From: Geosiphon pyriformis uo1 | Lineage: Eukaryota > Fungi > Glomeromycota | Length of the DNA stretch: 64,000 bases | Direction: 5' to 3' | Assembly (NCBI GenBank): GCA_016748015.1 | Contig: JAAOMT010000553.1 | Span: 152,923-216,922 of the forward strand | In this document: positions 26,105 through 60,406 of the stretch, piece by piece | Position numbering within the stretch: position 1 is the stretch's first letter | Layout: each line of letters opens with the position of its first letter | Program-made: the position numbers and the translations under genes | The notes under the pieces: generated by a model | Seen by the model: only the letters and a program-made list of their open reading frames with translations | Database searches by the model: none | What the model was told of the DNA's origin: nothing

Positions 26105-26930
26105 AATAATTATTAATTATATAAGTAATTAAGTTAAAGTTTTGAATTGTCTCAAGTTTTAAATTATTATCAATTATAAAAGTAATTAAGTCAAAGTTTT
26201 GAATTGTTTCAAGTTTTAAATTATTACTAATCTTATAAATAATTAAGTCATAGTTTCAAATTGTTCCAAGATTTAAAATATAATTAATTATATAAGTAAT
26301 TAAGTCAGAGTTTCAAATTGTTTTAAGTTCTAAATTATTATTAATTGTATGAATAATCAAGTCAGAGTTTTGAATTGTTCTAAGTTTTAAATTATTACTA
26401 ATCTTGTAAATAATTAAATTAAAGTTTTGTATTGTTTTAAGTTTTAAATTATTACTAATCTTGTAAATAATTAAGTTAAAGTTTTAAATTATTATTAATT
26501 ATATAAATAATTAAGTCAGAGTTTTAAATTGTCTTAAGTTCTAAATTATCATTAATTATATAAGTAATCAAGTTAAAATTTTGAATTGTTCTAAGTTCTA
26601 AATTATCATTAATTATATAAGTAATCAAATCAGAGTTTTGAATTGTTTAAAGTTCTAAATTATTATTAATTGTATAAGTAATTAAGTTGAAGTTTCAAAT
26701 TGTCTTAAATTCTAAATTATTATTAATTGTATAAGTAATCAAGTTAGAGTTTTAAATTGTTTCAAGCTCTAAATTATTATTAATTGTATAAGTAATTAAA
26801 TTAGAGTTTTAAATTGTTTTAAGCTCTAAATTATTATTAATTATATGAGTAATTAAATTAAAGTTTTGAATTGTTTCAAGTTTTAAATTATTATCAATTA
26901 TATGAATAATTAAGTCGAATTTTTGGATTA
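26105..26930. repeat. 57-bp minisatellite, about 14 degenerate copies
   Basis: The 'aagtaattaagt' motif recurs at 26123, 26180, 26237, 26294 and onward; one unit is truncated near 26480. Confidence 0.9.
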
Positions 26931-27575
26931 GTTTTATCTGATTAAAGTTTTGATTATACTTTTTTTTTGCTTTTTAATTCTATTATATTTAATAACAAAA
27001 AAAATAATATTTTTTTAACTTATATTTTACAAAGTTATAAAAATACTATACTTTAAAATAAATTTATAGTGCTTAATTAATATTATACAAATAATAAAAA
27101 CCAATTAAAAACTGTAAAATATTTTAAAAAAAATGGTTTTTTATACATAAAACAGTCTTTAGTTTTAGCTTGGATTAAAGATAAATCAAATTTTTGTTTA
27201 TAAGCAAATACAATATATAACTTAATTAACAAGTATATATGTACAATATGTAATTCTGACTTTGATAAAACATTTGTTATTTTTGTTCAAAAGACAAAAT
27301 TATGTGAAATAATACTTATTAAAAATATAATTCAAACTACTAACATAAAGTTTTATAATTAATTAAATATTTTAGAAAATAAGTGCCAAAAACTATTCAA
27401 TAGTTAGTGTTACAAATAAACTTGGTAGGATAAAAAAATGGTAATGTTTGGTGTTCTTAATTATTGGTAATGCATGTTTCATGTAATTTCATTAACTTAG
27501 TCTTGATTATCAGTCTCTAAAGATCTTATTTATTAGTTGTGAATTTATCTATTAAGTTTTTTGGTTATAAAGCAC

Positions 27576-28500
27576 TATTACAGATGATTATTTGGAGTCT
27601 TAAATCAAATAACAAAACCCATAATTTGGTGCTCAAAAGCTTATTCACAATGATATGGATCTAAAGGTATTGTTATCTAAAGATTTTGGTTGAGTCTTTT
27701 GTATAATGAACAGAGATTCAATAGTTGTTTATCCATAGCTTCCCAGAATCGCAATTCTGTTAATTTTTTTTTTCAGTTTGATGGCTGACAATCCTCTGGT
27801 AAGTAATTTATATTCTTTACGTGCTCTACCCACTTGTAGAAATCTTTTACCAGGCAATTTTTAATGTTAATAATTCAGCGCTTAATCCTTAATCAATTAG
27901 TAAACCCAAAGAAATAACAAAAAAATAAAAAAAAAATAAAAAAAAATAAAAAAAATAAAAAAAAATAAAAAAAATAACCCAAGACAATTTGTGCATTAGT
28001 ATTCTGTTAATAGCTGTAATTAAGAGCTATTGTTTCAATGATGTTAAGTATTAATTACTATCAACATAAAGTGTTGATAGTGAGAGTAGATTAAGATAGC
28101 AAATAATTATTTATTTGATATTTGTGATGTGAAAGGTTGTTTAGATCAAATCTAAACTAAAAGGTCTTTAACTAAATAATTTTGTCTTTTCTACTTCTAG
28201 CACTACTGCTATATATACATAATTAAGATTTCTCAATTTCTCAATTCTTTACACCAGGAATCCTAGAATTCCTGGAATCTTACAATTCTTTTGAGAGGAA
28301 TTCTGCAATTCTGGAATCCTGCAATTCTGGAATCCTGCAATTCCTTGTATAAGAATCCTGAAATTCCTGGAATCCTGCAATTCCTTTGAGAGGAATTCCA
28401 CAATTTTTTTGAGAGAAATTCTGGAATTCTATATTTACTACAGTTACTTTTGATTGGCTAATTTATATGCTAATATACTTTCTATATTCTATAAGTAATA
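27576..28500 (-). repeat. 3' LTR of element A
   Basis: Direct repeat of 36856-37730, preceded on the minus strand by the PPT (aaaaggagagaa, 28504-28515). Confidence 0.95.
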
Positions 28501-28513
28501 TTATTCTCTCCTT

Positions 28514-29143
28514 TTAATATTGAGCTCCATCAAGATCTCCTAATTCTAATTCTCTATTTTTGAATATTTCTTGAACTTCTTTTTCAAGAATTACTTGTGT
28601 TATCTTGTTCTGTAAGTCTTCAAATTGAGCATTAGTTATTTTTCCCATTTGGTTAATGATAATAGAATTTATTTCTGGATTGAATAAGATTTCTGGTCAA
28701 TCTTAAAATCCAGTATGTAATCAATAAATGGCTCTTGCTTGTGTGGTCAAATTGTTCTTCCCCACAAATTGTTCCAGTTGTTGTAGTATTGTTGTGTCAA
28801 ATAATTATTTTGTTTTATCTGTATACAAGCCCTGAATGTTCAAGTATTGTCTCAAATAAAAGTAACAAAAGTTTCTTGAAAATTGTTGTATCCACCAATT
28901 CCAAGTTTCTATAGTCAACTCTTGGTATTGGGTAACTTTTTGTTGTGTTTCTATTGCCAATTTTACCTTTGTAATTATTTTGTCAACAGTGTTTTTTGTT
29001 TTTCTCTGTATTTTATCTCGTGATTTTTTTCTGGTGTTTGTGTATTTAATAGTTTGTTGGTTAATTGTAATTTCCATTTCTTGTTGTTGGATCAGTTGGA
29101 AGAGTTGTTGTATTAGTAAGTAAATGTTGTCAGTAATCTCCAT
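28514..29143 (-). pseudogene. ORF3 of element A (209 codons, internal stops), homologous to ORF3 of C/D
   Basis: Single frame MEITDNIY...YFYLRQYL...ARAIY*LHTGF...NPEINSIIINQMGKITNAQFEDL...DGAQY*. TATATAAAAG lies about 35-40 nt upstream. Confidence 0.75.
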
Positions 29144-29219
29144 TTTTTGCTGTCTTTTGTCACATATATTGTGTCTTTTATATACTCCTTGGTTATTCAA
29201 TTTTACATGTTTGGTTTAA

Positions 29220-32200
29220 TAATTATAATTGGTTTTAGATCTCGTAGAATTTCATCTGGTTTGACTAGTATTCTTTGTACTCCCAATTGTGAAATATTAC
29301 TGGTAAATAATGATGCTTTATGGTAATATTGTTTCAGTCAATTACTATGTGCTGCTTTGGTTAAGATTTTGTTGTTCAACCTTAATTTATAAGCTCTATT
29401 TCCAAAAATTTCTTCTATGTGAAATGATCCATCTCATTTGGGATTGAATTTTCTACTTTATTGTTTTTCCACTTTGGTATAATGTAGAAGTACTTTGTCT
29501 CCAATCTTAAATTCAACTAGTTTCTCTGGTAGTTGGTTGTCATGTTTTTCTTTTTGTTTTTCTTGTGACTTTTATATGTTATCAGCTGCTCTTTACCTTT
29601 TGTTTTTTAGTGTTTTCATTAAGTTATATGTTCTTCTCAACAATGTTCTTTGGAAATTCTCTTCTGTTATTGGTTTTGTTGGATATGTTTGTACTTCTAT
29701 CTTCACTGGTAGTGTCACTGTTCTACCGTATACTAATTCAAATAGTGTTGTTTGTGTAGTGTCTTGCTTCATTGTCTGATAAGCAAATAATACCAATGGT
29801 ATAAACAAATTCCATTCATCTTGATTTTTTTGGCTGATTTTGGCAATTGCTTCACACAATGTTCTATTGAATTTTTTAACTAATCCATTGGTTTGTGAAT
29901 GGTATAGTGATAACAATGGTCTTTTGATTCCAAATTTTTGACTTAATTCTTTTAATATTCTATTTACAAAGTGAGTTCCTTGATCTGATAATAATTCTTT
30001 TGGACATTTGTGTTGACAAATTAAATCTTGATAAACAAATTCGGCAACAGATTCTGCATCTGCTTTTTGAATGGCTTTTGCTTCTGGCCATTTTGTGAAA
30101 TAGTCCATGGCTACTGCAATATATCTGTTGCCTCTACTGGTGATTGTTAATGGTCTGACTAAGTCAATTCCAATTTAGTTGAATGATTGTCCTACTTTAA
30201 TTGGTTTTAATGGTTTGCTGGGTTTTGTTCTACCTCTTTTTTGACAAGCATCACAATTTTGAACATATTAGATGATGTTTGGATACATTGATGGCCAATA
30301 GTATCTTTTTCTAGTTTTTTCTATGGTTGTTTCTTTATAAACATATCCTGCTGTTGGATCTGAGTGCATGTTGAATAATATTGTTTCTTTCTCTGGTTCT
30401 GTAATTACTCTGGTTGGTTGATCTGGATTTCTTTTGTTCTTCCAGTAAAGTATATTTTGGTGATTAATAAAATATTTTGGTTGTTGTTTTATGTTGTTTT
30501 GTTTTTTTTGAGATAATTTCTTCTTGAACAATTGGGTATTTATATAATGTTGAAGTTGTTGGTATTTTTGTATATTCATGTTTTGTTATATTTTTGGGGT
30601 TGAAATGTTTTTAGATTTGTCTCATTCATGACAAACCGTCAGCATTTCCATTGTCTCTTCTCTTTTTATAATGTACTGTAAATGTATATAGTGATAGTGC
30701 TATTTTCTATTTTGCATGACAATCATCTCCAAATTTTTGCTTTTAGATTGAAGTCAATTCTTTGTGATTAGTGTACACATCAAACTTTTGACTCAAGTAT
30801 TCTTTCTATTTGGTAACAGCCCAATAGATAGCTAAGTGTTCTAGTGCTGGAGTTCTATAGTTCTTTTTAGCTAGACTTAAGCTTCTACTGACATAAGCTA
30901 TTGAATGTTTTCTTTCATCTGGTCTTTTTTGTAATAGTATTGCTCCTAATGCTTGACCTGATGCATTAGTGGTGATAATGAATGGTTTGCTGTAATCTGA
31001 ATATATCAACACTAGAGCTTGTATAAGCTTTCTTCTTAATGTGTCGAAAGTTTTTTGCTAAGCTTCTGTCTATTTGTACTTCACATTTTTGGTTTGTAAA
31101 TAATGGAGTGGCTGGACCAGTTTAAAAAAGTCTTTGATAAAATGACAATAATAGCCTGTGAATTCCAAAAATGCTTTTAGTTCTATTAAGTTGGTTGGTA
31201 CTAGAAAGTTCTTTACTATTGCAATCTTGTCTGAATCCATTTTAATATCATTTTTGCTTATAATATGTCCTAAAAACTTGAGTTCTGTTTTTCCAAAAAA
31301 ACATTTGTTTGTATTTAACTTCAATTCTGCTCTTTTCAACCTTTCAAACACTTGTTGAAGATGACTTAGATGGTCATCAAATGTTTTGGAAAACACATTT
31401 GTGTTGTCTAAGTAAACAACTATGGATTTCTACAGTAATTCAGTATAAACAATTTCTATGAGCTGTTGGAATGTTGTTGGTACATTTATCAAGCCAAATA
31501 GCATAACTTCAAATTCGAAATTCCCTTCTCATGTTGTAAAAGCTGTTTTTTCTTTATCTTTTGACTTTATGGCTACTTGCCAGTAACTGCTGTTTAAGTT
31601 TAAAATTGAGAACCATTTCTTTCTTCCAAAAGCATTGAACAGTTCTTGAATCTTTGGAGTCAGATAGTTATCACCTTTAGTTACCCCATTTAGTTTCTGA
31701 TAATCTACACAAAAACAGATCTTTCTATTTTTCTTTCAGACTAGTATTACTGGTGATGATCATGGGCTCATTGATGGCTGAATTAGTTTGTTGTCAAGCA
31801 TCTAGTTGATTTCTTGATGAATGATCTCATGGCTGACTGGTAGTACTTTGTATGCTCTTTGTTTGATTGGCATTGCCTCTTCAGTCTTAATTTGGTGCTG
31901 GATTATGTTAGTTCTGCCAAATTTATTTTCACTGGCAAAGATGTTATTGAAATTGTTGAGTAACATTTTGAGTTGTATCTGTTGAAATGAGTTTAAGTTT
32001 TCCAAGTTCATCTGTTTCAATTTTTCTGGTTAAAGCTAATAACATTCTTCTTATCCATATATTGTTTGAGATGTGATATCTACATATTCACACAGTTGTG
32101 GAAAGTCTGGAATGGAATTTGGTGGTTGTTCTTCAATTTCAGTGGTTAAATATCCAATAATGATCTCTTCTGGTATCTCAATAATGTCTTCTGTGTTGTT

Positions 32201-35200
32201 GTAAATGAGAATTTTAAGGTGACTGTGATTTTTGGCTGGTATGTATAGATTGACTAATTCAATCTCTCCTGATTTACAAAGTGTTGCTTCTGCCTCAAAA
32301 ATCTGAACCTAATCCTTTACTTTTTTTTTTATAGTTATCATGTACTGGTTATATAGTAGAATGGAAATTAATTGATGAGTGGAGATAATTTCTCTCTTAT
32401 TAATAACCTCTTTTTCTGCCATATTGACTGGTACATCTATTCTACCTGTTGATCCGAATCTCTGTATTCTTTTAGCTGTAATCCCTAATTTTTCTTTGTT
32501 TTTTACTGATACTAATTGAGTTATTTTTACCAGAGACAGAAATATTGTTTGTACTATCTTTTTGTTTGGCTCTATGATATAAGTCTTTTCTGAATTATTT
32601 TGTAGCATTGTAATGATATTTTCTACATATCTTGCATTAATTATTCCTCCTTTGATGTTGATTCCTCTTTTTATTAAACTACTCCTAGATGCTAATTGAA
32701 CCATAGTTGTTGCTGAAATTTCTAGTGCTATTTTGAGATCAATGCATGTGTGCAAATGTGGTTCCAATTTGATGGCATCTTTCTCTGGATATCTCAGATT
32801 AAACTCTGCATCTGTATTATGCACACATTCTGGCATAATGTCTTTATTGTTGTCACTATACCATCTGAGTTCCTGTTCCTTGGAGAGATCAGAAAGCATA
32901 ATGTATGTTTTGGGATTTGAATCTGAATCTGAATTGCTATTATTTTTCTTGTCATTTTAAGCAGAGCTGGAACCATTGTTTTTATCGTTATCATTGTCAG
33001 AGTTTGAATTAGAATTGAAAATTGATTCCAATTCCAATGTGCAGCTGTCATTTGGTCTTTTTTCCTTTGGAATTGTGTAGATCATGTATGGTGGTGAATT
33101 GTAAATAAGGTCACACTCATTACAATATTGAAAGTTACATAGAATTAGGCAGTGTTGACACAATCAAGTATTTAATTGCTCTAAGTATTGCTCTTGCTCT
33201 TCTCTTATGGGTGCTAATTCTTAGTAGTGTTCATGAAATTGTTCTGGATTCAGGAAGTTTATGACTGGTTTCAGGTTCCAGTCAAGTTCTATGAGTTTAG
33301 GTGAGTTATTTTTAATTGTTCTTATTTTTTCTGGTAACACTCCTTCAATTTTGGCAAGTGCCATTTGCCAGATTTTGTTGTCGTCATATGGACAGCCATT
33401 CAGATGTTTGATTGCTTGTCTCCAGACAGTGTCTATGGGTGTTTTCTTTCTTATCCAGTCACTTATGAGAATCATGTACTAACACAATTCATCACATGTT
33501 CTTCCTTTCTCAGGAATATCATTTCACATTCCTTCATTGAGGAGAGTTTCTCTACAAGCCAAGCATGACTCATTATCCTATTTTCCAACTCATTTTGGTT
33601 TTCCAAAGCAGTCAATAAGGCATGAGTGGCAATAAAACTTAGTTGCCATTTGGTATTCTTCATCATCATCACAGCATACATCCATTGATAATAATTTCTT
33701 GTCACAATTAACACATATAAGCTTTGGTCAGCAATAAGTAAATTGTTGTGGTATAATATAGGTGTAGAAGTTATAAGTGGTAGTGTTGGTGGGTGTTGTT
33801 TCTTCTTCTTTCTCTTTTCTTTTTCTCTTGTCAGTTTCTTTCCACTCCTATGTTAATAATTTATTTGGATCATTGTCAGTTCCTTAGGGTTGGTTGGTAT
33901 TTCAGATAAGTTCTTCCCTTTGTTTTCCTTTTTCGTTGTTATCTCCAGAGAGTATTGGTGGTAACTTGTTGTGGTTTTTATTAGCCCAAAAGACTTGGTA
34001 GGCTTTCCAAGTAGGTTTTTTCTTTTTTTTCTTGAACTCAATGAGTGGTGCTGTCATGTTGGTGGTCTTGAAATGACCACATGTGGCTGGTACACATGTG
34101 TATTGACCATTCTGGCTGAGTTGGAGCTCTTGTGTGTTCCAATCAAGCATTGCATTGGTTTTGAACAGCCAATTGTTATCAATAAGTACTTGGTATTAAG
34201 TTGTTTTCATAACTAATATCTTGATTGGCATGATAATACCATTGACTTCTATAGAGAAGTCATCAATCTCACCAATCAGAGTTTTGGTCACTCTATCAGT
34301 AGTAATAATTCGCACACTGGCAGATCAATTAACTCGGTGACCTAATTGGTCCATGAGTTGTCTTGTGATGATACTGCCAGCTGATCTACTGTCTAGGATC
34401 AGTTTGATGGAGTGGCCATCAACTTTAGTATCAGTGTACATGGCAGTAATAGATTTTTTTTCAAAAGCAGCTTTACTAAATAATGGTATGGTTGACAGTT
34501 CCTCGAGTTCAAATGGGAAGATGGCATCTTGTGATTTGTTCTCAGTAATGATAACTGGTAGAATATTGCTGATAAGTATTAATTGTTGGTTGGTTTCTGG
34601 ATTATTGGGTTGGGCATCTTCTGGAGTAACCAAGAAACTTAAATAGTGTTGGAAATTTGGGTTTTGGGCATGCTCAGTTTCTGAATTCTGAGAATGTAAT
34701 CTTAATTGTTGTATGGAAGAGCTGGGAATCAGTTGGTGAACAACCATCACTGATCTCCAATTTTGAGTAACTCTTGATTTAGAGTTTTCTGATGTCATTT
34801 GAGCTAAGTTAGGTGGCAGTGTTTGAACTGCAGGTGTCTGATAAATTATTTGTGGCTGCAGTGATTGATATATTACTTGTGGCTGTGGTTGATAAACTGG
34901 AGGTTGATATATGGGTGGTTAATATATTGCCTGCTGTATCATTGACAGGTAAGTGGACTGATATTGTTCTTAATTTGAGTAATAATTTGGGATTTGAACT
35001 CTGTAATCAGGGTTTTGGTATTGATTTCCCAATTGTAAATTACTATAAAAATGGCAGTTAACTCTAATGTAATCTTGTTTACCACAGTTATGGCAGACTC
35101 ATGTCTCTGGCTGCCACAGCTGATTGGATGATAATAATGAATATGACTGATTTTGGAACCAATTTGCATTTCTTAAATTATTGTATTGTTGTAGTGATTG

Positions 35201-36800
35201 ATAAATTGTGCAATTGTTAGCTAAGTATTCCTTGATCTTCTGATTGATCGAATCACTAAATTGCTTTAGTTTGAAATTCAAGTCAGATGATCTGTTCATC
35301 ATTAGATTTATGGCTTAGGCATAGTTAGCTTTGAGTTTAGCTGCTTTAAAATCTTTAGTATTTGTAACTGCAGCTTCAAGGTCTGCTGGATGCATTAGGT
35401 GTATGTGCTAGAGGATGCTACTGTGCAGTTCTCTAATGAATTGATTTAGGATTTGTGGCACTGTAAAATAATCAGTCTGTATGGCCTGAATTTGGTGCAG
35501 ATTTCTGTGGAAACGTCCTAAGTAAGTGGTAACTGCTTTATTTTCTTCTTGTTTAATAGTAGTAAAAGTATTTGCTAGGCAATTGATATTATTATTATTG
35601 CTAAAGTATTGTAGGAATGCAAACTTAAATGCATTGAAATCCTGAGGTTTGTTGGCTAAGCTTTGATACCATGAATTGGTAATATTCTGGAGAAAATAAG
35701 AGATGGCTTGCATGGCTCTGGCATCATCTCATCTGTTAGCTGCAATGGTTTTTTCCACATCATTTAGCTACACTTGAGTGTCATTCTCTTCACTGGTGAA
35801 TTTTTTGAGTTTTGCAATTGGAGCATAAGCCATTGGTATAATCAGTTGTTGGTATAGTGGTTAAAGTTGTTATTGTGGCTATTAAAGAGGCTGCTGTGGT
35901 TGTTGAAATGGTTGTTAAATAGGTTGCTGAAGTGGCTAATGTTGAATTGGTTCAATAATCAATTCAATTGGTGGCTGATCAATAACAATTACTGGAAGTA
36001 AGTTTTGTTGATTAATTACTTTGGGGTTTGAATTGTTTTGAGTTTGCTGGGTTTGAATATTCAGAGTTTCAACTTCCAGATTTTCTAGAATTGGGGTTTG
36101 GTAAGTAAATTCCTGATTCTTACTTTCTTCTTCTTTTTCTGATTCCATTACTTCCCATGGACTTGCAGTTCTGAAATCTGGTTGAGGTAGTGGTGATTAA
36201 AATTCTGATGGCATTGGTGATCACAATTTGAATTCTTTAAAATATTTGCCATATGATTTTAACAACTCTGCTCTTCTTTGTTTACTTTAAAATGAGAATT
36301 GTCCAAAGGTTGATGTCATGTTTGATGTGAACGCGTCTGCTGTAGAAATATTAATGGCACTTTCTGGTGTATAATGATATGATAGATTGGTTGGTAATTC
36401 AACTCTGGTTTTCTTTTAAGTGAATAGTTGTATCTTTTTAGGTGTTACTGCTGGTGTTTGCAATCTTCCTTTGTTTTTGTCTACATAGGTAATGAGAAAT
36501 TGTTGTTGAGTGTACTTTTCAATAGTTTAATTAATTTCTTTGATGATTGGTATGAAACTGTAGTTTCTTGGAAAACTGGTATATTGAAATAATTCTGTAT
36601 AAAAATTTTCTTTTGCAGATTCAATGTTAACTGTTCCTCCTAAGCAGTTTGTGATCCTATCATTGACATAAAAGTTAAAGGCTAATTCTGTGGGAAAATG
36701 ATTATTGTTTAATTCTAATTGTTGGCTGTACTGTTGAAACAAAAATTTGGCAAATCCTAAATGGTTTGCTCCTATGATTTCTGATTCTGCCACTTTTGGA
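29220..36800 (-). pseudogene. gag-pol: gag-pol of element A (many stops)
   Basis: Capsid-like 35408-35810; knuckle CHNCGKQDYIRVNC (~35060-35095); PR LILDS (34325-34798); dUTPase (32309-32899); RT YLDN; RNase H; integrase DYFTKWPEA/SDQGTHF. Confidence 0.92.
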
Positions 36801-36836
36801 TAATTGTTGTTGATATTGGTTCTTTGTAAGATTATA

Positions 36837-36853
36837 CCTTACAGGGAGCACCA
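36837..36853 (-). promoter_or_regulatory. Primer-binding site TGGTGCTCCCTGTAAGG
   Basis: Begins with TGG (complement of tRNA CCA) 2 nt inside the 5' LTR boundary. Confidence 0.8.
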
Positions 36854-36855
36854 AA

Positions 36856-37730
36856 TGTTACAGATAATTATTTGGGGTTTCAGATCAAATAACAAACTCA
36901 TAACTTGGTACTCAAAAGCTTATTTGCAATAATTTGAATCTGAAGGTATTGTTATCTGAAGGTTTTGGTTGAGTCCTTTGTATAATAGACAGAGATTCAA
37001 TAGTTGTTTATCTGTAGCTTCCCAGAATCGCAATTCTGTCAATTTTTTTCTTTAGCTTGATGGCCAGCAATCCTTTGGTAAGTAATCTATATTCTTTACG
37101 TGTTCTATCCACTCACAAGAGTCTTTTACCAGGCAATCTTTGATGTCAATAATTCAGTGCTTAATTTTTAATCAATTAATAAACCCAAAAAAATAACAAA
37201 GAAATAAAAAAAAAATAAAAAAAAATAAAAAAAATAAAAAAAATAAGCCAAGGCAATTTGTGCATTAGTATTCTGTCAATAGTTATGATCAAAAGCTATT
37301 GTTCTAGTGGTGTTAAGTATTAATTACTATCAACATGAAATGTTGATAGTAAGAGTGAATTAAAATAGCAAATAATTATTTATTTGATATTTGTGATGTG
37401 GAAAATTGTTTAGATCAAATCTAAACTAAGAGATCTCTAACTAAAAAATTCTGCTTTTTTTACTTCTAGTACTACTGCTATATATACATAATTGAAATTC
37501 CTTAATTCCTCAATTTTTCACACCAGGAATCCTAGAATTCTTGGAATTCTGCAATTTTTTTGAGAGGAATCCTGGAATTCTGGAATCCTGTAATTTCTTG
37601 TACAAGAATCCTGAAATTTCTGGAATTCTGCAATTCCTTTGAGAAAAATCCTGGAATTTCACATTTACTATGGTTACTTTTGATTGGCTAATTTATATAC
37701 CAATATACTTTCTATATTTTATAAGTAACA
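36856..37730 (-). repeat. 5' LTR of element A
   Basis: TGTTA...TAACA termini; adjacent to the PBS. Confidence 0.95.
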
Positions 37731-40459: not shown

Positions 40460-41589
40460 ACATTATCTGGTGTTATTATATGTTATTCTGTGTTATCTCA
40501 TATTGTAATGTATTATTCTGTATTATCTTAAGTTATAACATATTATTCAATAGTATTGTATACTGTTACTAGTAGAATTTTAGCTATTAATTAGCATGAA
40601 ATTATCCTTATAATTCCTATTAGTAATTAACATGTGAATATCAATCCAAATTATTACTTATTATTTAATCAATTTATTACATATCATGATTCAATTAATA
40701 ATCCAATTAGTACAACAAAAAGTAAGATAATTAAATTACACAATACCCTGAACTTTGTAACATTCTAAAATTTGCCAAAATTTACAGAAATTTGTCGAAA
40801 TTTATATGAAATTTGCCAAAATTTATAGAAATTCGCCGAAATTATGAATAGTTTATCCAAATTAATCAATAGTTTAGTGAAATAACTTGTAGTTCATCAA
40901 AATGTATTTTTAGTTTGCCAAAATTTGAGCAAAGAAAAAAAGTGCAAGTTCATAGACTAGTACTACAACAAGTTGTATAAAAGAAGAGCTTTTCTCTTCA
41001 AGAAAATGTATCTTACTTTAGATTTATTACTTAGAACCATTCCTACATACACAAAAAGAAATAAATATCAAATAATTTGAAAAAACCAAATTCTTTAATT
41101 ATTGTACTTGGAACATTCCCAAAACCCAACTAGCATTTTGAAATTGATTAGCTACCAATTTCAGTAAACTGTTAGTGACTCCAGGCCTGGATAGAAAACG
41201 TTTTTCTTGATAAAATCCTATTTTTTTTACATTTTTTTTATTTTTTTTTTCTTTTTTTATTACAATCATTAGAGTAGCCTACAGATGAGATTCCTGTAGA
41301 AGAGTTGACTTTCACAGCAAAGTAACTACACATTTTTAGTGAGCTTCCAGACGAGCAATTCCTGGGAAAAAGTTGACATTTACTACAACATAACTACATA
41401 AAGTAACTGGCAAGAAATTGACCATTCCACTTATAAGCCCAGCAATTCAAATTATAGGAGATAATTTGAAGCTAAATTCAGTTATTGGAGGTTCAACTAC
41501 TTCTAGAAAACGTGAATTTGCAACCAACAGACAGTTACAACATTCAAAAAAAGAGACCAAAAACCTCCAGTAACATTTGGTGCTCTCTC

Positions 41590-47500: not shown

Positions 47501-48605
47501 GAAAAAAAAACAATTCTATACAACATGCACACAGATTCTTCTTCAGCACACTTGGGAAGAGATGAAACAATTCAAAGAACTCTTGAACATTATTTTTGGC
47601 CTCACATGCAAAAAGACATTCGACAATATGTAGAATTTTGTGATAGTTGTCAAAGAAAAAGAGGAACTCGCCACACAGAACTTTTAAATCCAATTAAAGT
47701 TGGACAGAGTTGAAATTGATTTAGTCGGACCATTACCTATCACAACCCAAGGAAATTAATATATTGCAGTTGCAGTGGATTATTTTACCAAATGGCTTGA
47801 AGCTAGAGCCATCCAAAAAGCAGATGCAAAATCAGTAGCAAATTTCATCTATGAAAACATTATCTGTAGACATGAATGCCCAATTGAACTCTTATCTGAT
47901 CAAAGAACACATTTTGTGAACAACTTAATACAAGAAATTTGTGAATGATTCAATGTCAAAAGACCTCTATCATTATCTTATCACCCTCAAACAAATGTAC
48001 TTGTAAAATGTTTTAACAAAACATTGTGTGAATCTCTAGCCAAAGTTTCAATAGACTTTGAACAGAAATGGGATATCTTTATTCCATCAGTATTACTAGT
48101 ATACAGAACACTAAAACAAGATATTATGAAACACACACTATTTGATCTTACTTATGGAAGAACAGCAATATTACCAATTAATTTTACAGTGGAAACATAT
48201 CCTGTGCAACCAATTAATGAAGAGAACTTGCAAGAAACACTCCAAAGAAGGGCCTACACTCTCCTTAGTACACTGGAAGGAAAAAAAAGGATAGCAGCAA
48301 CTTATATTGAATATTCTCAAGCTTAACAAAAAGAAAGACATAACAACAAATTACCACTCATAACCAACGAATTTAAAATAGGAAATAAAGTTCTCTTATA
48401 CAGAACTAAGGCTGAAAAACAATAGAATGGGAAATTTGAAAACAAATGGGATGAACCATTTTATATTCACGAAATTCTAGGCAATAGATCATGCAAGTTA
48501 AGACTTGATAACAAAGTACTAGCAAAAGTTGCACATGAAGATAGATTAAAATACTATCATTCCAGAAACAATCCTGAACTATTAATTCCACAAATTGGTA
48601 CACAT
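41590..48605 (+). pseudogene. gag-pol: gag-pol of element C (stops and frameshifts; last codons continue at 58495-58582)
   Basis: CHYCGIPKHWKQDC knuckle, LILDSG protease, dUTPase (45070-45400), RT LDLKSGYWQ/YLDD, RH TDA, IN HHCC and core. Confidence 0.93.
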
Positions 48606-49611
48606 TGTTACCAGTAAAATTTTAGTTATTAATAAGCATGAAATTACTCTTATAATTCCTATAATTAATTAGTATATTAATATCATTTCAAATTATCATT
48701 TATTATTTAATCAATTATCACATATCACGATTCAATCAAAATAATCTAATTAGTATAACAGAAAGTAGGATGATCAAATTACACAATACTCTGAACTTTA
48801 TAATATTCAAAAATTCGCCGAAATTTACAGAAATTTGCCAAAATTTATAAGAAATTCGCCGAAATTATGAATAGTTCACCCAAATTAATCAATAGTTCAG
48901 CAAAATAACTTGTAGTTCATCAAAATGTATCTTTAATTTGCTGAAATTTGAGCAAAGAGAAAAAGTGCAAGTTCATAGACTAGTACTACAACAAGCTGTA
49001 TAAAAAAAGAGCTTTTCTCTTCAAGAAAAGATATCTTACTTTAGGTTTATTACTTAGAACCATTCCTATACACACAAAAAGAAATAAATATCAAATAATT
49101 TGAAAAACCAAATTTTTTAATTATTACACTTGGAAAATCTTCAAAACCCAACTAACATTTTGAAATTGATTAGCTACCAATTTCAATAAACTGTTAGTGA
49201 TTCCATGCCTGGATAGAAAATGTTTCTCTCAATAAAATTCTATTTCTTTTACATTTCTTTTATTTATTTTTTCTTTTCTTATTACAATCATTAATGTAGC
49301 CTACAGACAAGATTTCTGTAGAAGAGTTAACTTTCACAGCAAAGTAACTACACATTTTAGTGAGCTTCCAGATAAGCAATTTCTGGGAAAGAGTTAACAT
49401 TTACTACAATGTAACTACATAAAATAACTGGTAAGGAATTGGTCATTCCCTTCATAAGCCCAGCAGTTCAAATTATAGGAGATAATTTGAAGATAAATTC
49501 AGTTATTGGAGGTTTAATTGCTTCCAGAAAACGTGAAATTAACAACAGACAAACAGTAACAACATTCAAAAAAAGAGACCAAATATCTCTGGTAACATTT
49601 GGTGTTCTTCC

Positions 49612-52600
49612 ATGGAAATAACACAGCAACAACAAATTCAAAGTGACAATCACACCAGAAACAGCAACTCTAGAGTATTATCAGTCAATTTACACCCACT
49701 GCAAGCAAAGATTCAACATTTCAGACAGAATTGAAGTTGTCAAGAAATCAGTATACCAATACATTGAAAACCACATCAACAATTATCTTTTTGGAAACTA
49801 CAACATTTCAGAAGTTAGAAACAACCTCTACAATAATTTAGTGCACTATTCACAATTGGGAACAGAAGATCTGAACAGTGAAACACTTGCTACCTACTTC
49901 CAAGAACTTAATTTTAACATTATTGAGTATTGTGAAGAAAAATACCTAGTACAGTCTAAATACTCTTTTGACTTTGAATCAGAGATAGAAACAAGCAACA
50001 AAGACAAACAAGGATTGAAGCAATACTCAAGAACCACTCCAAACACTTCAACACTACAAAAGACACCTGCCAAATACTTGCAAACACTTGAACAAGGAAC
50101 TAGTGTCAAATTACCACTTTTTATTACACTATTTCTAATTTCACTTGTTTAACCACAAACACCAAATTCACCACTCAACTGCTTCTCTAGACCAGAAGAT
50201 TTTCAGTCATCTAGAAACCCTACTCAACAGCAGAAACCAATATCAACAAGTGCCAATATCATTGATTACTTACAAAAAAATGAAAGTAATCATTCAGAAA
50301 GCTTGGAAAGTGAAGAAACTGAATCAGAACCAGAAGAAATTACAGAAACCGAAGAAAAAATGGCAACTGCTTACATTGCAAAAATCCCAGAATTCACTGG
50401 TAAAGACAATGATACCAGTCCTCAAGAATGGCTTGACAAAGTTCAAAAAGCAGGAGATGCTAATAGTTGGATCGCAGCAAGAATGCTCAAAGCAATTCCC
50501 TATTTTCTTTAAAGAACAGCAGGAGAATGGTTTGAAAATTTAGAAGAACCATTTGAAAACTGGCAAGCATTCAAAGATGCTTTTCTACAATAATTTACTA
50601 ACAACAATACCTCTATTACTCTCAGAAACCACTTTCACAATATCAAACAAAAAACATCTAAAACTGTTATGACCTATCTTAGAAGATTTAACAAACTTCT
50701 CAGATGAATCTAACAATTAAAAACCAATGACTACTATTCTGATGCTTAAATTCTGGATCAGTTTATAGCAAGGTTAAAAAACAAATTGATTAAAAAAGTC
50801 CATCTACATGCTCCAGCAGACTTAGCAACTGCTATTAGACATGCAAAGAGCTATGAAATGGCAATGAAAAAAGCAAATCACACCAAGCTTGTAAATCTTG
50901 CAATTAAAGAAACCAGCTCAGCAGCTGAAGAGAAGATAGACCAACAACAACAGCAACAACAACCACAAAGATATCAACCCCCACAACGACACAACCAAAA
51001 CAATTTTGGATCACCATCCAACAACCAATCTCAAAATTGTCATTATTGTAGAATTCCAGAACACTAGAAACAAGATTGTAGAAAATTACAAAGAGACCAA
51101 CAAAACAGGAGTAATCAACATTACTCTTCACCACAACAATCCTATTACCAATCTCTACCACCAACTTATTATTCACCAAGACCACAAAATCAAAACAGTT
51201 ACTATCCACCAGCTCCACAACCAATGCAGCAACAATATCAGCAACCTTTACCAATTCAGCCATATCAGACACCACCCACTCAACAATATTAAGTACCAGC
51301 AAGAAGATTGGTTCAATATAACCAATTCACACCCCAAAATCAATTACAGAGTAACCACAACAGAATCAATCCAAATAACCAGTTGGTTTCCCAAAATTCT
51401 GGTCAGCAAAGACCCAATCACTATCACACTCAACCCAGTTATCTTACAATACCAGAGAAATCGGATTTTCAACAAACTGCACTTTCTGAAGGTGAAGTTG
51501 CAGCACCAAGTTCAAACCCTTCCAACCACATCATTCCACCAGCTCAAATTGCCCAAAATTCCAATCTGTCAGATATATTTCCATTTGAATTTGAAGCAAA
51601 TGAATCACCATTTCTGCTTAGTAATGTAGCAGTCAATAAACAGAAAGCAATTACTGCTATGTGCACAGAAACTACAGTGGAAAGAAAACCTATTCGCTTA
51701 ATCTTAGATAGTGGATTGGCTGGAAGTATCATCACTTACCAGCTGATACAACAACTCAAACGAAACATAGACAGACCAGCTCAAACAGTTATTGTCACAG
51801 CTGATGGTATGAAGAAGACTCCAATAGGAGAAATTGATGACTTCCCCTTTACAATTGATGGAATTATCATTCCAGTTAAAGTTTTTGTTATGGATGCACC
51901 CCAATATCAAGCTCTAATTGGAAATGATTGGCTTCTCAAGGCCAATGCAAACCTGAACTAGAAAACTCAAGAACTTAAAATCTCATACCAAGGACAATAT
52001 ACTATAGTATCTGCAACCTGTGGTATCTTTAACAAACGATCAGAAAAAGCTCCAGTATTTGAATTTGAAGAAGAAAAGGAAATGCCACTCACTGAAACCT
52101 ACATGGCTCTTGGATTATTATCCAATTGGGCTGAGAAAACAGAACAAAAGATTTTTGAAAAATCAAGAGGATGGAAGAAAGTTAGATATTCCACACCAGA
52201 ACCATAAAAAAAACCACTATACATTCCACTAAAATACAAAGATTGCAAAAAAAAGCTTTTATCTATGGGAGCCTGTATCTCCCCAGAAGAGAAATACGAA
52301 ACTCATACTTGTTACTTCTGCAAGACATGCTATAGAAAACGATTTGGATCCCCAAAGAAAAGTGAAAAATAGGACAAAACTCTTTGCTTCACATGTGGAG
52401 AAATGCTACCAGAAGAATGCAATTGGATTGATGTAGCAATGAGAGGAGGAGTATATAATCAAACCTGTCAATATGCTCTATCAATTGTGGAAAAAGTCAG
52501 AAGAGGAACACCATTTGATGCAGCATACAACAGTGCTTTCAATAAACTTTACCACTACCCTTATAATGCTGAAATAATTTTTGACCTAGTAATGGCATTA

Positions 52601-55600
52601 ATCAATAGAGCCACCCAAAAAGATGTTCACTAAATGAAAGAAGCTGAATATATTGAATATACTATAAAATTAGCTGGATTTGATTATGAAGATGAAGTAG
52701 AAACCTACCACCAAATTGCAAGCCACACATATCCGACCAAAAAAGCTCAAATTCAACAATTAGAGCAAATGAACATTCAATTGTGTGAAGAATGTGTTAT
52801 GTCTTGTGATGACCAATGGTGTTTAGAATATTATGCTCTTAGCATTCCTCTGCCAGATGAGAATGACGAAAATGAAATCGAATTTGGAGTATCTGAACTA
52901 GTAGAAGAACTACCAACCACTCCCATCTATCTTCTTGAAAAGCAACCACCTCTACAACTTAAATATTTTGACAACCATGGCCAAGGAATCAGACCAGAAA
53001 AAGCACACGAAATTGATGCTAGATATGACTTAAGATACCCAGGAAAAGATACTTTGGTTCTCCAACCAAAGTTTTTGAAAAAAATCCATCTCAAAATTGC
53101 TCTTGAAATTCCACAAAGAGCAATGGTTCAAATTGCCTCCAGATCATTATTGGCAAGCAAAGGAATCAATATTAAAGGAGGAGTTATAGATGCAGGATAC
53201 ACTGGAGACATTTCCATCATATTACAGAATGAGACAGACAAACCATTCAAAATTGAACATGCTGAAAAAATTGCTCAAGCAATTTACTTACTCTTAATCA
53301 ACATTTCGGGATTACAATCAATAAACAACAGAGAACAATTGGAAAAAAGTGAAAAAGGAACTCAAGGTTTTGGTTCAACTGGATGATTTACAGTTCTAGT
53401 AAACATAGCTCTTAATACACAAAATGAATCTCACCAGATTTTTCAACTTTTCTAGCCAATTAACATTTCACTTTTTGAAGAACATCACAAAATTTATACT
53501 TGCTCAAAACCCACTACCACACAACAAATCTTTGAATCCAATGAACAAATCTGTTTGAAGCATGAAATCTCAATTCCAAACGTTTATATTCTCAAAGGAA
53601 TGAGAAAATTTTGAGTTACATTCTACAACCCAATAATTACCTTATTGTTTTATTAAACAAACTAGAGATTGAAATCATACACAGCAATATTTTTCAAGAT
53701 GAAAACCCTCAAATTGTCTTTAATTTCATCGAAATTGTAAGGCACACTCTACTTCCAAATTCAAATGTCATTCCTACTACTGAAAACTACTACTTTTTGG
53801 AAGAAAAACTCTCTTGAATCAACATGGGTCCTTTAGAATCTCAACAACAAAGACAATTGAAACAATTGATAGCTAAATTTGCAGATATATTTGCAAAAGA
53901 CAACAATGACTTGGGAAAAACAGACATTGTTCAATATCTGATCCATACAGGAGATGCTCCACCAAAACATCAACAAGCCTATCAAGTGTCACCTGCCAGC
54001 CACCAATTCATCAGAGAAGAGGTCCAAAGAATGCTCAATAATGGATTGATTCAACTATCAAAAAGTCCTTGGGCCTCACCAGTAGTTTTAGTTAAAAAGA
54101 AAAACGGAAAAATCAGATTCTGTGTTGATTATAGACAACTGAATAGTGTTACAATTGGAGATGCCTACCCTTTTCCAAGAATTGATGACATGCTAGATGC
54201 TCTAAGAAAAGCCAAGTTTTTCTCAACTTTAGACTTGGAAAGTGGATACTGGCAAGTCGAAATGGACCCAAAAGACCGACCCAAAACAGTATTTACCCCA
54301 AGAAGGAAACTATGAGTTCAATATTATGCCTTTTGGACTCTGCAATGCACCAGCAACATTTCAACAACTCATGGATGTTGTATATAAAAAACTCTTATGG
54401 CAATCAGTAGTTGTTTACCTTGATAACACTAATGTGTACTTACCAAGTTTTAAAGCCCATCTTATTCATTTGCAAGAAGTTTTTCAATGATTACGGAAAG
54501 CAGAATTGAAGTTGAATATTGAGAAATGTCACTTTGAAAAAACAAGCTTAATCTTTCTTGGGCACATTATTAGCAAAGATGGAGTCAAATTAAACCCTGG
54601 AACAATTAGTGCTGTCAAAAACTTCTAAACCCCAAAAAATACTACAGAGCTACGAAGATTTGTAGGATTAGCTTCCTATTACCAAAAATTCATTAAAGGA
54701 TTCTCAGAAATTGCCAAACCACTCAATTATCTTACCAATAAAAATGTGCCATACAAATGGACTGAAGAACAACAAAAAGCATTTGAAACTCTCAAAACAA
54801 AGCTGAAAACAGCCCCAGTTCTTGCTTACCCAGACTTCAACAAACAATTTCAACTAGCCACTGATGCTTTACACATAGCATTTGGTGTCATCTTATCACA
54901 AGTAGATGAAAATGGGCAAGAACAAGTCATCACTTATGCTAATAGAACACTCAAATCAACAAAACTAAAATACAGCTCAACTGAATTAGAAGCTGTCACA
55001 GTTATTTGGGCTCTTAAACATTTTCAACAATATCTGAAGAATGAAAAAGAATTTGACATAATAACAAACAACATTGGCCTCAAATGGCTCAATAAAAAGA
55101 AAACTGAACAAAGTGCCAAACAGTCTTGATAAAATAACTTCCTAGCAAACTACAGATATATTGTACACCACAAACCAGAAAAACTACATACCAATGTTGA
55201 TAGCCTCTTAAGAATAAGACAAGATTAATACCAACAACAATTCCACCACAGCTTACCAACCTACCAACAAAATAACCAAACAAAAATGAATCCCAGAAAT
55301 TACAGCAATCTTAAAAATTATTTGGAGACTCTTACTATGCCAGAAAACTGGTCTCCAAGTGAAAAACATTGTTTACAACACCAATCAAAACAATATTTTA
55401 TACACCAGAACAAAATCTATTATAAAAATCACAGAAACCCAAACCAACCACTTAGATTAGTACAAGAGAATAAAAAAGAAACAATTTTATACAACATGCA
55501 TACAGATCCATCTTCAGCACACTTGGGAAGAGATGGAACAATTCAAAGAACCCTTGAACATTATTTTTGGCCTCACATGCAAAAAAACATTTGACAATAT

Positions 55601-56670
55601 GTAGAATTTTGTGATAGTTGTCAAAGAAGAGGAGGAACTCGCCCCACAGAACCTTTAAATCCAATCAAAGTTGGACAACCTTTTGACAGAGTTGGAATTG
55701 ATTTAGTCGAACTATTACCTATCACAATCCAAGGAAATTGTTATATTGCAGTTGCAGTGAATTATCTTACCAAATGGTCTAAAGCTAGAGCCATCCAAAG
55801 AGCAGATGCAAAATCAGTAGCAAATTTCATCTATGAAGACATTATCTGTAGACATAGATGCCCAATTGAACTCTTATCTGATCAAAGAACACATTTTGTA
55901 AACAACTTGATACAAGAAATTTGTGAATGATTCAATATCAAAAGATCTCTATTATCACCTTATTACTCTTAAACAAATGAACTTGTAGAACGTTTCAACA
56001 GAACATTGTGTGAATCTTTAGCCAAAGTCTCAACAAACTTTGAGCAGGAATAGGATATCTTTATTCCATCAGTATTACTAGCATACAGAACACTGAAACA
56101 AGATACTATGAAACACACACTATTTGATCTTACTTATGGAAGGACAGCAATATTACCAATTAATTTTACAGTAGAAACATACCCAGTGCAACCAATCAAT
56201 AAAAAAAACTTTCAAAAAACACTCCAAAAAAGAGCCTACACTCTTTTTAGTACACTGGAAAAAAAAAAAAAATAGCAGCAACTCATATTGAACATTCCCA
56301 AGCTCAACAAAAAGAAAGACATAACAACAAATTACCATCTATTACCAACGAATTTAAAGTTGGAAATAAAGTTCTCTTACACAGAACTAAGACTGAAAAA
56401 CAATGGAGTGGGAAATTTGAAAACAAATGGAATGGACCATTTTATATTCACGAAATTCTAGGCAATAGATCATACAAATTAAGACTTGATGACAAAATAC
56501 TAGCAAAAGTTGCACATGGAGACAAATTGAAATACTATCATTCCAGAAACAATCCTGAACCATTAATTCCACAAATTGGGACACATCCCCTTTTAATTAA
56601 TTCTGAAGATATTTCCCGAAATTTAGAACCAATAATTATAATAAACAACAACCAAACTTAAACACTTAAA
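49612..56670 (+). pseudogene. gag-pol: gag-pol of element D, ancestrally one ~7-kb ORF
   Basis: ORF fragments 49643, 50303, 50786, 51308, 52403 and 52634 are all in one frame. PR ~51700, dUTPase ~52960-53385, RT ~53990-54600, RH ~54830-55220, IN with GPF motif to ~56560. No chromodomain. Confidence 0.93.
52960..53385 (+). other. dut: Trimeric-type dUTPase domain within Pol (also ~44980-45400, ~32445-32870 and ~63120-63550)
   Basis: All five motifs are present: DARYDL (AGYDL), ASRS, GGVIDAGYTGDI, IAQAI, KGTQGFGSTG. Confidence 0.92.
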
Positions 56671-56814
56671 TTTTACAATAATTCTCCAATAAAAACACAA
56701 AGACAAAAATAGTAAATAAATTACAAAAACACCCAAACCCAAAAACAAATAAAAATCTCATATCCCAAAAATAATTTTCCTTATTCTCTCTTTTCATAAT
56801 TAGTCAATTTTATT

Positions 56815-57522
56815 ATGATTATTCCCCAAAATATTCAACAAATATCCCAAAAGTTAATGTTAGTCTTAAAAACACTTCCTGACTTATCCATAACAATTAA
56901 TAGAAGTCAAATTAATTACATTCAGAAAAAAACCACAGTTCCAATAGCAAATCATTTACAGAACTATCACCCCTATAGAAGAAAAACAAGAAGTCACTCT
57001 GAGAATAGATTACCAAGACTTTTGAAGCAGGCACTAGAAGAAAATCTTTTAATTGCCTCTATTGACATTTCACCAAATACTACAATACAACAAAAACTTC
57101 TACTACTTCTTAATGAACAGAACAATGAACACACCCCTATCTATAAATACTTTCAAATTGGAAAAACACTTTATGAACAAAAACTAGAACTTGAAGCAAC
57201 AAATATCACTTCTGAAGTTATACAAAAACAAATCCACAATGAATTCAAAACAGCAGCTGGACCAACAAACACTCATTACAGACTGAGAGCAGCTCTTAAA
57301 CTCTATGACTTGTTCAATACTTGTGAAAATGTTTTACAAAATCCAATACTGCAACCAATGAAAGTCCAATACATTAGCAAGCTCACAGAACTGAAATTTC
57401 AAGAATTTTCAGACCAGATTACTTCAATTATTTTGGATCACTATCTCAATATTACAGATAGTGCTTGGACTTTGACGGAGCTCAGTCTTGAAGAGGAGAT
57501 TATGTTACCAGTAGAATTTTAG
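56815..57522 (+). CDS. ORF3 of element D: intact 235-aa protein of unknown function, running through the PPT into the 3' LTR
   Basis: Open ATG-to-TAG frame downstream of integrase, with homologs in C and A. No signal peptide or TM segment is visible. Confidence 0.8.
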   Translation: MIIPQNIQQISQKLMLVLKTLPDLSITINRSQINYIQKKTTVPIANHLQNYHPYRRKTRSHSENRLPRLLKQALEENLLIASIDISPNTTIQQKLLLLLNEQNNEHTPIYKYFQIGKTLYEQKLELEATNITSEVIQKQIHNEFKTAAGPTNTHYRLRAALKLYDLFNTCENVLQNPILQPMKVQYISKLTELKFQEFSDQITSIILDHYLNITDSAWTLTELSLEEEIMLPVEF

Positions 57523-58736
57523 TTATTAATTAGCATGAAATTACCCTTATAATTCCTATAATTAATTAGTATATTAATATCATTTCAAATTATCATTTAT
57601 TATTTAATCAATTATCACATATCACGATTCAATCAAAATAATCTAATTAGTATAACAGAAAGTAGGATGATCAAATTACACAATACTCTGAACTTTATAA
57701 TATTCAAAAATTCGCCGAAATTTACAGAAATTTGCCAAAATTTATAAGAAATTTGCCGAAATTATGAATAGTTCACCCAAATTAATCAATAATTCAGCAA
57801 AATAACTTGTAGTTCATCAAAATGTATCTTTAATTTGCTGAAATTTGAGCAAAGAGAAAAAGTGCAAGTTCATAGACTAGTACTACAACAAGCTGTATAA
57901 AAGAAGAGCTTTTCTCTTCAAGAAAAGGTATCTTACTTTAGATTTATCACTTAGAACCATTCCTATACACACAAAAAGAAATAAATATCAAATAATTCGA
58001 AAAACCAAATTCTTTAATTATTACACTTGGAAAATCTTCAAAACCCAACTAACGTTTTGAAATTGATTAGCTACCAATTTCAATAAACTGTTAGTGATTT
58101 CACGCCTGGATAGAAAACGTTTCCCTTGATAAAATCCTATTTCTTTTACATTTCTTTTATTTTTCTTTTTTTTTCTTATTACAATCATTAGGGTAGCCTA
58201 CAGATGAGATTCCTGTAAAAGAGTTGACTTTCACAGCAAAGTAACTACACATTTTAGTGAGCTTCTAGACAAGCAATTTCTGGGAAAGAGTTGATGTTTA
58301 CTACAATGTAACTATATAAAATAACTGGCAAGGAATTGGCCATTCCTTTCATAAGCCCAGCAGTTCAAATTATAAGAGATAATTTGAAGATAAATTCAGT
58401 TATTGGAGGTTCAATTGCTTCCAGAAAACGTGAAATTAACAACAGACAAACAGTAACAACATTCAAGAAAAAAGACCAAAAACCTCTGATAACAATATTC
58501 TCCTTTAATTAATCTTGAAGATATTCTCTGAAATTTAGAACCAATAATTATAATAGAATAACAACCAAACTTAAACACTTAATTCAACATAATTTTACAA
58601 TAATCTTTAATAATACACAAAAGACAAAAATAATAAATAATTACAAACACCCAAAACCCAAAAACAAATAAAACCCCAGACCCAAAAAAAAATATTTTTC
58701 TTTATTTTTCTTTTTCACTAATTAGTCAATTTTATC

Positions 58737-59444
58737 ATGATTATTCCCTAAAATATTCAACAAATATTCCAAAAATTAATGTTAGTCTTGAAAACACTTC
58801 CTGACTTATCCATAACAATTAATGAAAGTCAAATCAATTACATTCAAAAAGAAACCACAGCCCCAGTAATAAATAATTCTCAGAACTACCACCCCTATAG
58901 AAGAAAAACAAGAAGTCACTCTGAGAATAAGTTACCAGAACTTTTGAAGCAGGCACTAAAAGAAAACTTTTTATCTGCCCCTATTGACATTCCACCAAAT
59001 GCTACAATGCAACAAAAACTTTTACTACTTCTCAATGAACAGAACAATGAACACATTCTTATATTTAAATACTTTCTGCATTGGAAAAGCACTTTATGAA
59101 TGAAAACTAGAACTTGAAGCAACAAATACCAACCCAGAAGCCATACAAAAACAAATTCACAATGAATTCAAGACAGCAGCTGGATCAACAAATACTCGCT
59201 ACAAACTTAGAGCAGCTCTTAGACTCTATGACTTGTTTAATACTTGTGAAAACGTCCTACAAAGCCCAATACTTCAATCATTGAAATACAATACATTAAA
59301 AAGCTCACAAAACTGAAATTTCAACAATTTTCAGAGCAAATCACTTCAATTATTTTGGATCACTATCTCAATATTACAGATAGTGCTTGGATTTCGACGG
59401 AGCTCAGTCTTGAAGAGGAGATTATGTTACCAGTAGAATTTTAG
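58737..59444 (+). pseudogene. ORF3 of element C (stop at codon 5, frameshifts)
   Basis: Colinear with 56815-57522. Confidence 0.85.
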
Positions 59445-60406
59445 TTATTAATTAGCATGAAATTACCCTTATAATTCCTATCATTAATTAACATATTAAT
59501 ATCAATCCAAATTATCACTTATTATTTAATCAATTTATCACATATCACGATTCAATTAATAATCTAATTAGTACAACAGAAAGTAGGATGATCAAATTAC
59601 ACAATACTCTGAACTTTGTAACATTCTAAAATTCGCCGAAATTTACAAAAATTCGCCGAAATTTATAGAAATTTGCCGAAATTATGAATAGTTTATCCAA
59701 ATTAATTAATAGTTCAGCGAAATAACTTGTAGTTCATTAAAATGTATTTTTAGTTTGCCAAAATTTGAGCAAAGAGAAAAAGTGCAAGTTCATAGACTAG
59801 TACTACAACAAGTTGTATAAAAGAAAAGCTTTTCTTTTCAAGAAAATGTATCTTACTTTAGATTTATTACTTAGGACCATTCCTATATACACAAAAAGAA
59901 ATAAATATCAAATAATTCAAAAAAACCAAATTCTTTAATTATTGCACTTGGAAAATCCCCAAAACCCAACTAGCGTTTTGAAATTAATTAGCTACCAATT
60001 TCAGTAAACTGTTAGTGACTCCAGGCCTGGATAGAAAACGTTTCTCTTGATTTCTTTTACATTTTTTTTATTTTTTTATTTTTTTTCTTATTATAATCAT
60101 TAGGGTAGCCTACAAACGAGATTCCTGTAGAAGAGTTGACTTTTACAGCAAAGTAACTACACATTTTTAGTAAACTTCCAAATGAGCAATTCCTGGGAAA
60201 GAGTTGACATTTACTACAACGTAACTACATAAAGTAACTGGCAAGAAATTGGCCATTCCACTTATAAGCCTAGCAGTTCAAATTATAGGAGATAATTTGA
60301 AGATAAATTCAGCTATTAGAGGTTTAACTACTTCTAGAAAACGTGAATTTGCAACCAACAGACAGTTACAACATTCAAGAAAAGAGACCAAAAACCTCCA
60401 ATAACA

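Follow-up and report, generated by a model that had tools for sequence, protein, structure and literature searches.

A third gene in dUTPase-bearing Ty3/Gypsy elements of Geosiphon pyriformis encodes a predicted soluble helical protein

LTR retrotransposons are known to carry extra open reading frames (ORFs) behind pol, for which explanations are poor, and the locus examined here raises the question of what one such ORF encodes and what it might do for its element. We investigated a 64,000-nucleotide stretch of contig JAAOMT010000553.1 of Geosiphon pyriformis uo1 (hereafter, the window), which carries two divergent Ty3/Gypsy families, D and A. A preliminary description had placed an extra sense ORF (ORF3) between the integrase gene and the 3' LTR in each of them, and this arrangement was confirmed in both. 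The coordinates are collected in Table 1.

Self-comparison of the window resolved the D region into a nested pair of elements, in which an older D element, E1, was interrupted by E2 where its integrase ends; the ORF3 and 3' LTR of E1 continue past E2 at 58495-60406. As in the Metaviridae (PMC7879559), these Ty3/Gypsy elements have two LTRs with a primer-binding site and a polypurine tract, and gag followed by PR-RT-RH-IN, as assigned from Pfam matches; they are unlike them in bearing a dUTPase between PR and RT, and their ORF3 is not the Env of that family, which comprises transmembrane and surface domains. On the pol side, D and A are 57% identical in integrase, 47% in RT/RNase H, and 50% in dUTPase, and they are 42% identical in gag. 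Both families also have a pre-capsid N-terminal Gag extension (49622-50350 in D; 36527-36838 in A) with no significant Pfam match. An AT-rich relic at 3251-4653 (minus strand) comprises a D-like integrase and spacer and stops near the ORF3 start.

Outside these elements, the window holds a 730-bp duplicate, 100% identical, that flanks a 20-N gap at 10451-11930 within a kinase gene fragment and is a probable assembly artifact; a gene at 14272-16525 that, from a reading of its translation, we take to be probably an FAD-linked oxidase gene, whose end region contains a tandem repeat of 51 nt (Asn/Ser/Gly); and a tandem array of about 16-19 units with a 57-nt period (25991-27071).

Table 1. Positions of element and ORF3 features in the window, with a related environmental element for comparison
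Feature	Position	Strand	Description
A element, full-length	27578..37728	-	Two LTRs; 4-bp target duplication GTGC; gag-PR-dUTPase-RT-RH-IN-ORF3
A ORF3	28514..29143	-	209 codons in one frame, 4 internal stops; 21-22% identical to D ORF3
A dUTPase	32444-32833	-	Between protease and RT
Element E2 (D)	48606-58494	+	LTRs 95.5% identical; 4-bp target duplication ACAT/ATAT
5' LTR of E2	48606..49597	+	TG...CA, then TGGTG primer-binding site
gag-pol of E2	49622..56661	+	Decayed single frame: gag, protease, dUTPase, RT, RNase H, integrase, SH3-like end
dUTPase of E2	52994-53383	+	Between protease and RT; in D, a Cys-rich stretch lies before it
Pyrimidine tract, then AG	56775..56803	+	12 nt upstream of the ORF3 ATG; candidate splice acceptor
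ORF3 of E2	56815..57522	+	235 aa, open; stop 57520-57522
N-terminal helix and beta-hairpin module	56815..56928	+	Residues 1-38; low-to-moderate model confidence
R/K/H-x2-5-PY motif and basic patch	56953..56991	+	Residues 47-59, disordered linker; candidate PY-type nuclear localization signal
Helical core, conserved	57133..57444	+	Residues 107-210; pLDDT mostly 80-95
GGAGCTCA motif and polypurine tract	57477..57499	+	Conserved at the DNA level in D, A, and L001
3' LTR of E2	57503..58494	+	TATA 57896; AATAAA 57980; intron-like signals 57928-58070 and 58090-58203
Broken ORF3 of E1	58737..59444	+	2 stops and frameshifts
Environmental ORF3 protein P0271			Encoded on contig L001; order RT-RH-IN, 316-nt spacer, 230-aa ORF3, polypurine tract, LTR start

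ORF3 is a separate gene in both families, starting 153 nt after the integrase stop (56661) in D and 59 nt after it in A. The span first given for D, 56770..57522, had the correct end, but its start has been moved to the ATG at 56815. The D frame crosses the polypurine tract (57490-57499) and ends 20 nt within the 3' LTR. Since the GGAGCTCA/polypurine DNA is read in different frames, the C-terminal tail of ORF3 represents run-through rather than conserved protein. A conserved hairpin in front of the polypurine tract was considered and dropped, as its predicted energy was only about -4 to -5.5 kcal/mol.

The first line of evidence for a shared gene is the similarity of the two proteins in the face of DNA that can no longer be aligned, which the preliminary description had proposed from a series of short motifs. 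Every one of those motifs was found, and the best D-A blastn match had an E value of 0.054 over 20 nt. The proteins, in contrast, matched in BLASTP with an E value of 4e-6 (21% identity, 154 aa), and their profiles aligned significantly in hhalign (probability 80.8, E 1.3e-5, 183 columns), collinearly from the N-terminus. Further, their local alignment score of 111 was not reached in any of 1000 shuffles, the shuffled maximum being 72.

All searches combined yielded 345 related proteins in eight subfamilies, which share 18-66% pairwise identity and are collinear over ~200 residues; this divergence far exceeds that of pol. Family A is the commonest group (157/345). An exhaustive HMMER search over 1.84 billion representatives gave 114 ORF3 matches, and the source was determined for 55, namely 53 from G. 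pyriformis and 2 environmental. Among the named matches listed, 119 of 120 were G. pyriformis loci (the remaining one being the window's own protein), as were all 108 of the named matches listed in a second search. The relatives of known source are nearly all annotated as "hypothetical proteins" of G. pyriformis, and the spread across Glomeromycotina that had been envisaged was not borne out, with no named match beyond G. pyriformis among those whose source was determined. Two of the eight subfamilies are environmental, one of them with the integrase-ORF3-LTR layout (L001), where the RT-RH-IN stretch contains 2 internal stops. Of the 345 database gene models, 30 have integrase fused on the upstream side of ORF3, among them members of D1, D2, A, and C, and a single one has it on the downstream side. 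The top Atlas matches for ORF3 were unnamed Mucoromycota clusters, which may be the ORF3 family itself. A plasmid tblastn search with ORF3 gave no matches, and locus scans were empty for A1 in metagenomes and for A3 and P0270 in viral contigs.

A second question is whether this frame has been maintained by selection. The D copy is indeed open while D pol has many stops, as had been pointed out, but this openness does not reach significance and fails as an argument for selection: the E2 gag-pol, 2318 codons long and broken by 24 stops and about 3 frameshifts, itself contains uninterrupted stretches of 250 and 222 codons, and a frame of 235 codons would be open by chance with a probability of about 0.065-0.07. 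Moreover, the E1 and A copies of ORF3 are broken. The dN/dS comparison, made between E1 and E2, likewise did not differ from neutral decay; the ratio was 0.37, where 0.52 is the neutral expectation under the observed transition bias, and 29 of 74 changes were synonymous against an expected fraction of 0.33 (p 0.17). Within the D family, majority differences between D1 and D2 are rarer in the core (16/104) than in the linker (14/25), in a comparison based on 86 of 120 D rows (34 having been excluded for length or coverage). This regional contrast is ambiguous, because rare changes are likewise depleted in the core (1.3% vs. 2.9% of cells). The case for selection is instead carried by the persistence of one frame and one residue pattern in eight lineages whose DNA similarity is gone, together with a predicted fold that improves sharply as lineages are added. 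On these grounds, ORF3 is very probably a genuine, selected accessory gene.

The improvement of the fold was seen in AlphaFold, where a model from 28 close sequences was poor (pLDDT 48), whereas 81 sequences gave a mean pLDDT of 72.5 and a pTM of 0.62, with values of 80-95 over most of residues 81-200. The predicted layout consists of a helix and hairpin (residues 6-37), a disordered linker (40-63), and a helical core. The pattern of the N-terminal module is kept in every subfamily with an intact N-terminus, and the conserved residues of the core are Tyr110, Phe113, Gly116, Gly149, Asn152, Ala159, Leu163, Tyr164, Phe167, and Leu174. A homodimer prediction scored 0.01. Of the checks proposed earlier, structure prediction delivered a helical core with good confidence, and the fold searches matched it clearly to nothing. 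Foldseek of the 81-sequence model against PDB and BFVD, a search that mainly covers the core and barely samples residues 1-62, gave no match at E<=0.001, the best BFVD row being an uncharacterized phage protein (E 0.049), and the best Z scores in the VIA structure comparison were 5.2 and 6.2.

Searches at the sequence level were similarly sparse. Pfam contained no family for D ORF3; PHROGs returned weak matches only; and the best PDB sequence match was importin-5 (E 0.004), with nothing found by a wider profile. DUF1016_N (PF17761) was matched weakly by 6 of 81 members (best E 0.0028), and the scores seen, 12.9-15 bits, lie far below the gathering cut-off of 32.8 bits. It was dropped as a lead after a profile comparison with YhcG N-terminal domains, on a shallow alignment of 8 sequences (2 of 10 chosen loci having been excluded for stop codons), which gave a probability of 0.3-0.8%, with 1 and 3 of 60 shuffles as high. 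The likeness of ORF3 to DUF1016_N is superficial, comprising a Y-x-x-IG ... helix-turn ... LY pattern.

Hydropathy confirmed the reported lack of a transmembrane segment and also revealed no hydrophobic leader, the maximum 19-residue Kyte-Doolittle mean being 0.27-1.29 in seven proteins. ORF3 proteins contain 1-2 cysteines, and this, together with the lack of a hydrophobic segment, indicates that ORF3 is not Env as defined in PMC7879559. Their whole-protein pI ranges from 5.4 to 9.3, so that ORF3 is not consistently basic. The characterization of ORF3 as an old, non-env, mostly helical accessory protein was upheld, given its same position in several divergent lineages and its predicted helical core.

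Comparable genes have been described in other elements. Plants have additional sense ORFs with the same pol-3' LTR position and orientation and in many copies, but those covered in the accessible part of PMC7264820 are env-like with transmembrane segments, which ORF3 is without. The bdelloid elements Juno, Vesta, and TelKA are closer, since the accessible portion of PMC5408684 describes a dUTPase between PR and RT, no chromodomain, and a non-env ORF3, in some cases of 210-230 aa; however, the bdelloid ORF3s in that portion are fusion proteins, transmembrane proteins, GDSL esterases, or DEDDy nucleases, and the fungal ORF3 matched none of those Pfam families. A survey of fungal Gypsy elements, in the sections available to us (PMC2864245), mentions an "additional ORF of unknown function" and a dUTPase between PR and RT in PosPlaTy3-5, but it centers on chromodomain elements. 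The accessible part of PMC3248453 contains nothing on ORFs behind pol.

Clues to the function of ORF3 come from its linker. An R/K/H-x2-5-PY motif, which is the PY-NLS consensus given in the available text of PMC2408616, is present in the linker of seven of the eight subfamily representatives, where the net charge is +4 to +8 and the pLDDT is 30-35. PY-NLS proteins also have a basic or hydrophobic motif toward the N-terminus; in ORF3, much of the basic charge lies C-terminal of the PY. Among D rows, 50 of 103 retain the full motif and 62 of 103 retain the PY. The motif arises in 7-16% of shuffles for each representative, and, as the proteins bearing it are kin, its occurrence in seven of eight shows conservation rather than function. 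The nuclear location suggested earlier thus gained a motif-level hint, but one that does not extend to family A, which has no PY. Judging from this motif, the ORF3 protein likely enters the nucleus.

Further clues come from intron-like signals in the D LTR, which lie just downstream of the TATA box. The first donor GT is present in 4/5 copies, and a branch-like ACTAAC/ACTAGC plus AG in 5/5; the second donor, GTTAGT, is present in 4/5, and a pyrimidine tract plus AG in 5/5. Because the five copies are close kin (four of them, as measured, are 90-95% alike), this conservation is not independent evidence for splicing. The AATAAA of the D LTR sits within the first intron-like segment, a placement that could keep transcripts from being polyadenylated at the 5' LTR. 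A possible ORF in U5 of the D LTR is uncertain, with each frame carrying 4-7 stops fixed across all copies. The A LTRs (36858-37728 and 27578-28500, minus strand) have a protein-like U5 frame of ~100 codons after a long T-rich tract, which continues across the primer-binding site and shares its frame with gag; as no ATG follows the primer-binding site in A, translation of Gag in this family may begin in an LTR leader that is spliced. The candidate acceptor in front of ORF3 occurs in both D copies, and none was seen in A or L001.

From these signals, our working proposal is that ORF3 would be expressed from a spliced or separate short mRNA, be imported into the nucleus through its PY-type signal, and there bind the unspliced genomic RNA of the element and help it exit. 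If the introns of the LTR leader are real, the genomic RNA must keep them for the LTR to be regenerated, and the element would then need a route past nuclear retention. Working analogues are found in CERV of Cer1 and Rev of HIV, element-encoded nuclear factors that these elements need for export of their unspliced genomic RNA, according to the accessible part of PMC10309623. CERV is described there as a large protein that contains a G-like domain and a Cys loop, whereas ORF3 has few cysteines; no homology between them is shown or expected, and the link is therefore one of analogy only. The absence of PY in A, the restriction of the acceptor before ORF3 to D, and the variable pI weigh against export, and we regard a Rev/CERV-like role for ORF3 as a tentative possibility. 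We infer that it ranks first among the functions considered, close to a DNA/chromatin regulator and a particle or integration cofactor.

In the second of these readings, which we consider possible though rather doubtful, ORF3 would be a nuclear DNA- or chromatin-binding regulator that acts on the LTR, either switching on its transcription or opposing its silencing by methylation. The PY-type hint fits this role equally well, and the model contains a helix-turn-helix-like arrangement (helix 133-148, a G-x-T-N turn, and helix 153-167). Weak VIA rows include sigma-F region 4 (Z 4.6, rmsd 2.4, 57/57 aligned) as well as the C-terminal domain of CHD1 (Z 4.9). Every VIA Z score is below 8, however, in a range common for helical bundles, and the DUF1016_N lead failed its profile test. 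Also in line with this reading is the heavy transition decay of the D copies, whose divergence over 41576-56586 comprises 607 transitions and 85 transversions; decay stops fall at CGA, CAA, and TGG codons, and the transition excess and these stop sites together suggest methylation-driven deamination, including at CpA sites. In Rhizophagus, transposable elements are mostly CG-methylated, as stated in the accessible part of 10.1101/2021.03.30.436303.

An unlikely alternative assigns ORF3 to the particle, as a packaged cofactor that chaperones RNA or cDNA or takes the pre-integration complex to nuclei or target sites. The nuclear signal is compatible with such a role, insertions of both families leave 4-bp target duplications and are found nested in one another, and the C-terminal end of the E2 integrase is SH3-like with no chromodomain match in Pfam, so that targeting could come from a separate protein. 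ORF3, however, lies outside the polyprotein, behind a stop and a spacer of 59-316 nt. Improbable to a greater degree is self-encoded copy-number control, or a competitor-restriction factor limiting related elements; the faster divergence of ORF3 relative to pol and the coexistence of many subfamilies in one genome would fit, but nothing supports this reading specifically, and LTR elements make up 41.2% of the G. pyriformis genome (accessible part of PMC11952901).

It is very unlikely that ORF3 is the coat or nucleocapsid protein of a virus, captured by the element and standing in for env so that the element can pass from one hypha or host to another. ORF3 does occupy the env position, and Atlas gives closterovirus coat protein (PF01785) at 0.92 and 0.93, but the 150-151 shared features fall under the 170 typical of true members, the recognition score of the query is below the Atlas threshold, ORF3 has no hydrophobic segment, and the coat protein is absent among the Pfam, BFVD, and VIA matches listed, so this identity was not upheld. 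Finally, a non-functional passenger or chance frame, although compatible with the open D copy and with a D-D dN/dS expected of neutral decay, is the least probable reading of all, since the protein is alignable where the DNA is not, one frame persists in eight lineages, and the family alignment yields a confident fold.

A description of the ORF3 family was not found in the literature searched, to which subscription papers, supplements, Repbase, and GyDB did not belong; the family may be catalogued in Repbase, GyDB, or the Geosiphon genome paper. ORF3 defines an accessory gene family that is real and apparently undescribed, in a clade of fungal Gypsy elements that looks narrow. To the known class of ORFs behind pol it adds a protein family, as yet unnamed, whose core can be folded, an environmental copy that is independent and lies next to a nearly intact pol, and a specific proposed job. 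For G. pyriformis, the more than 300 "hypothetical proteins" retrieved here are pieces of this transposon gene and not host genes. If ORF3 regulates RNA export or silencing, it would provide a fungal parallel to retroviral accessory genes. More speculatively, and with considerable doubt, this Ty3/Gypsy clade may be "complex" in the retroviral style, its LTR leaders being spliced and its genes including both a dUTPase and a Rev-like regulator of undescribed helical fold; ORF3 would then have aided the expansion of these elements to about 40% of the Geosiphon genome, in whose annotation several hundred "hypothetical genes" would be copies of ORF3.
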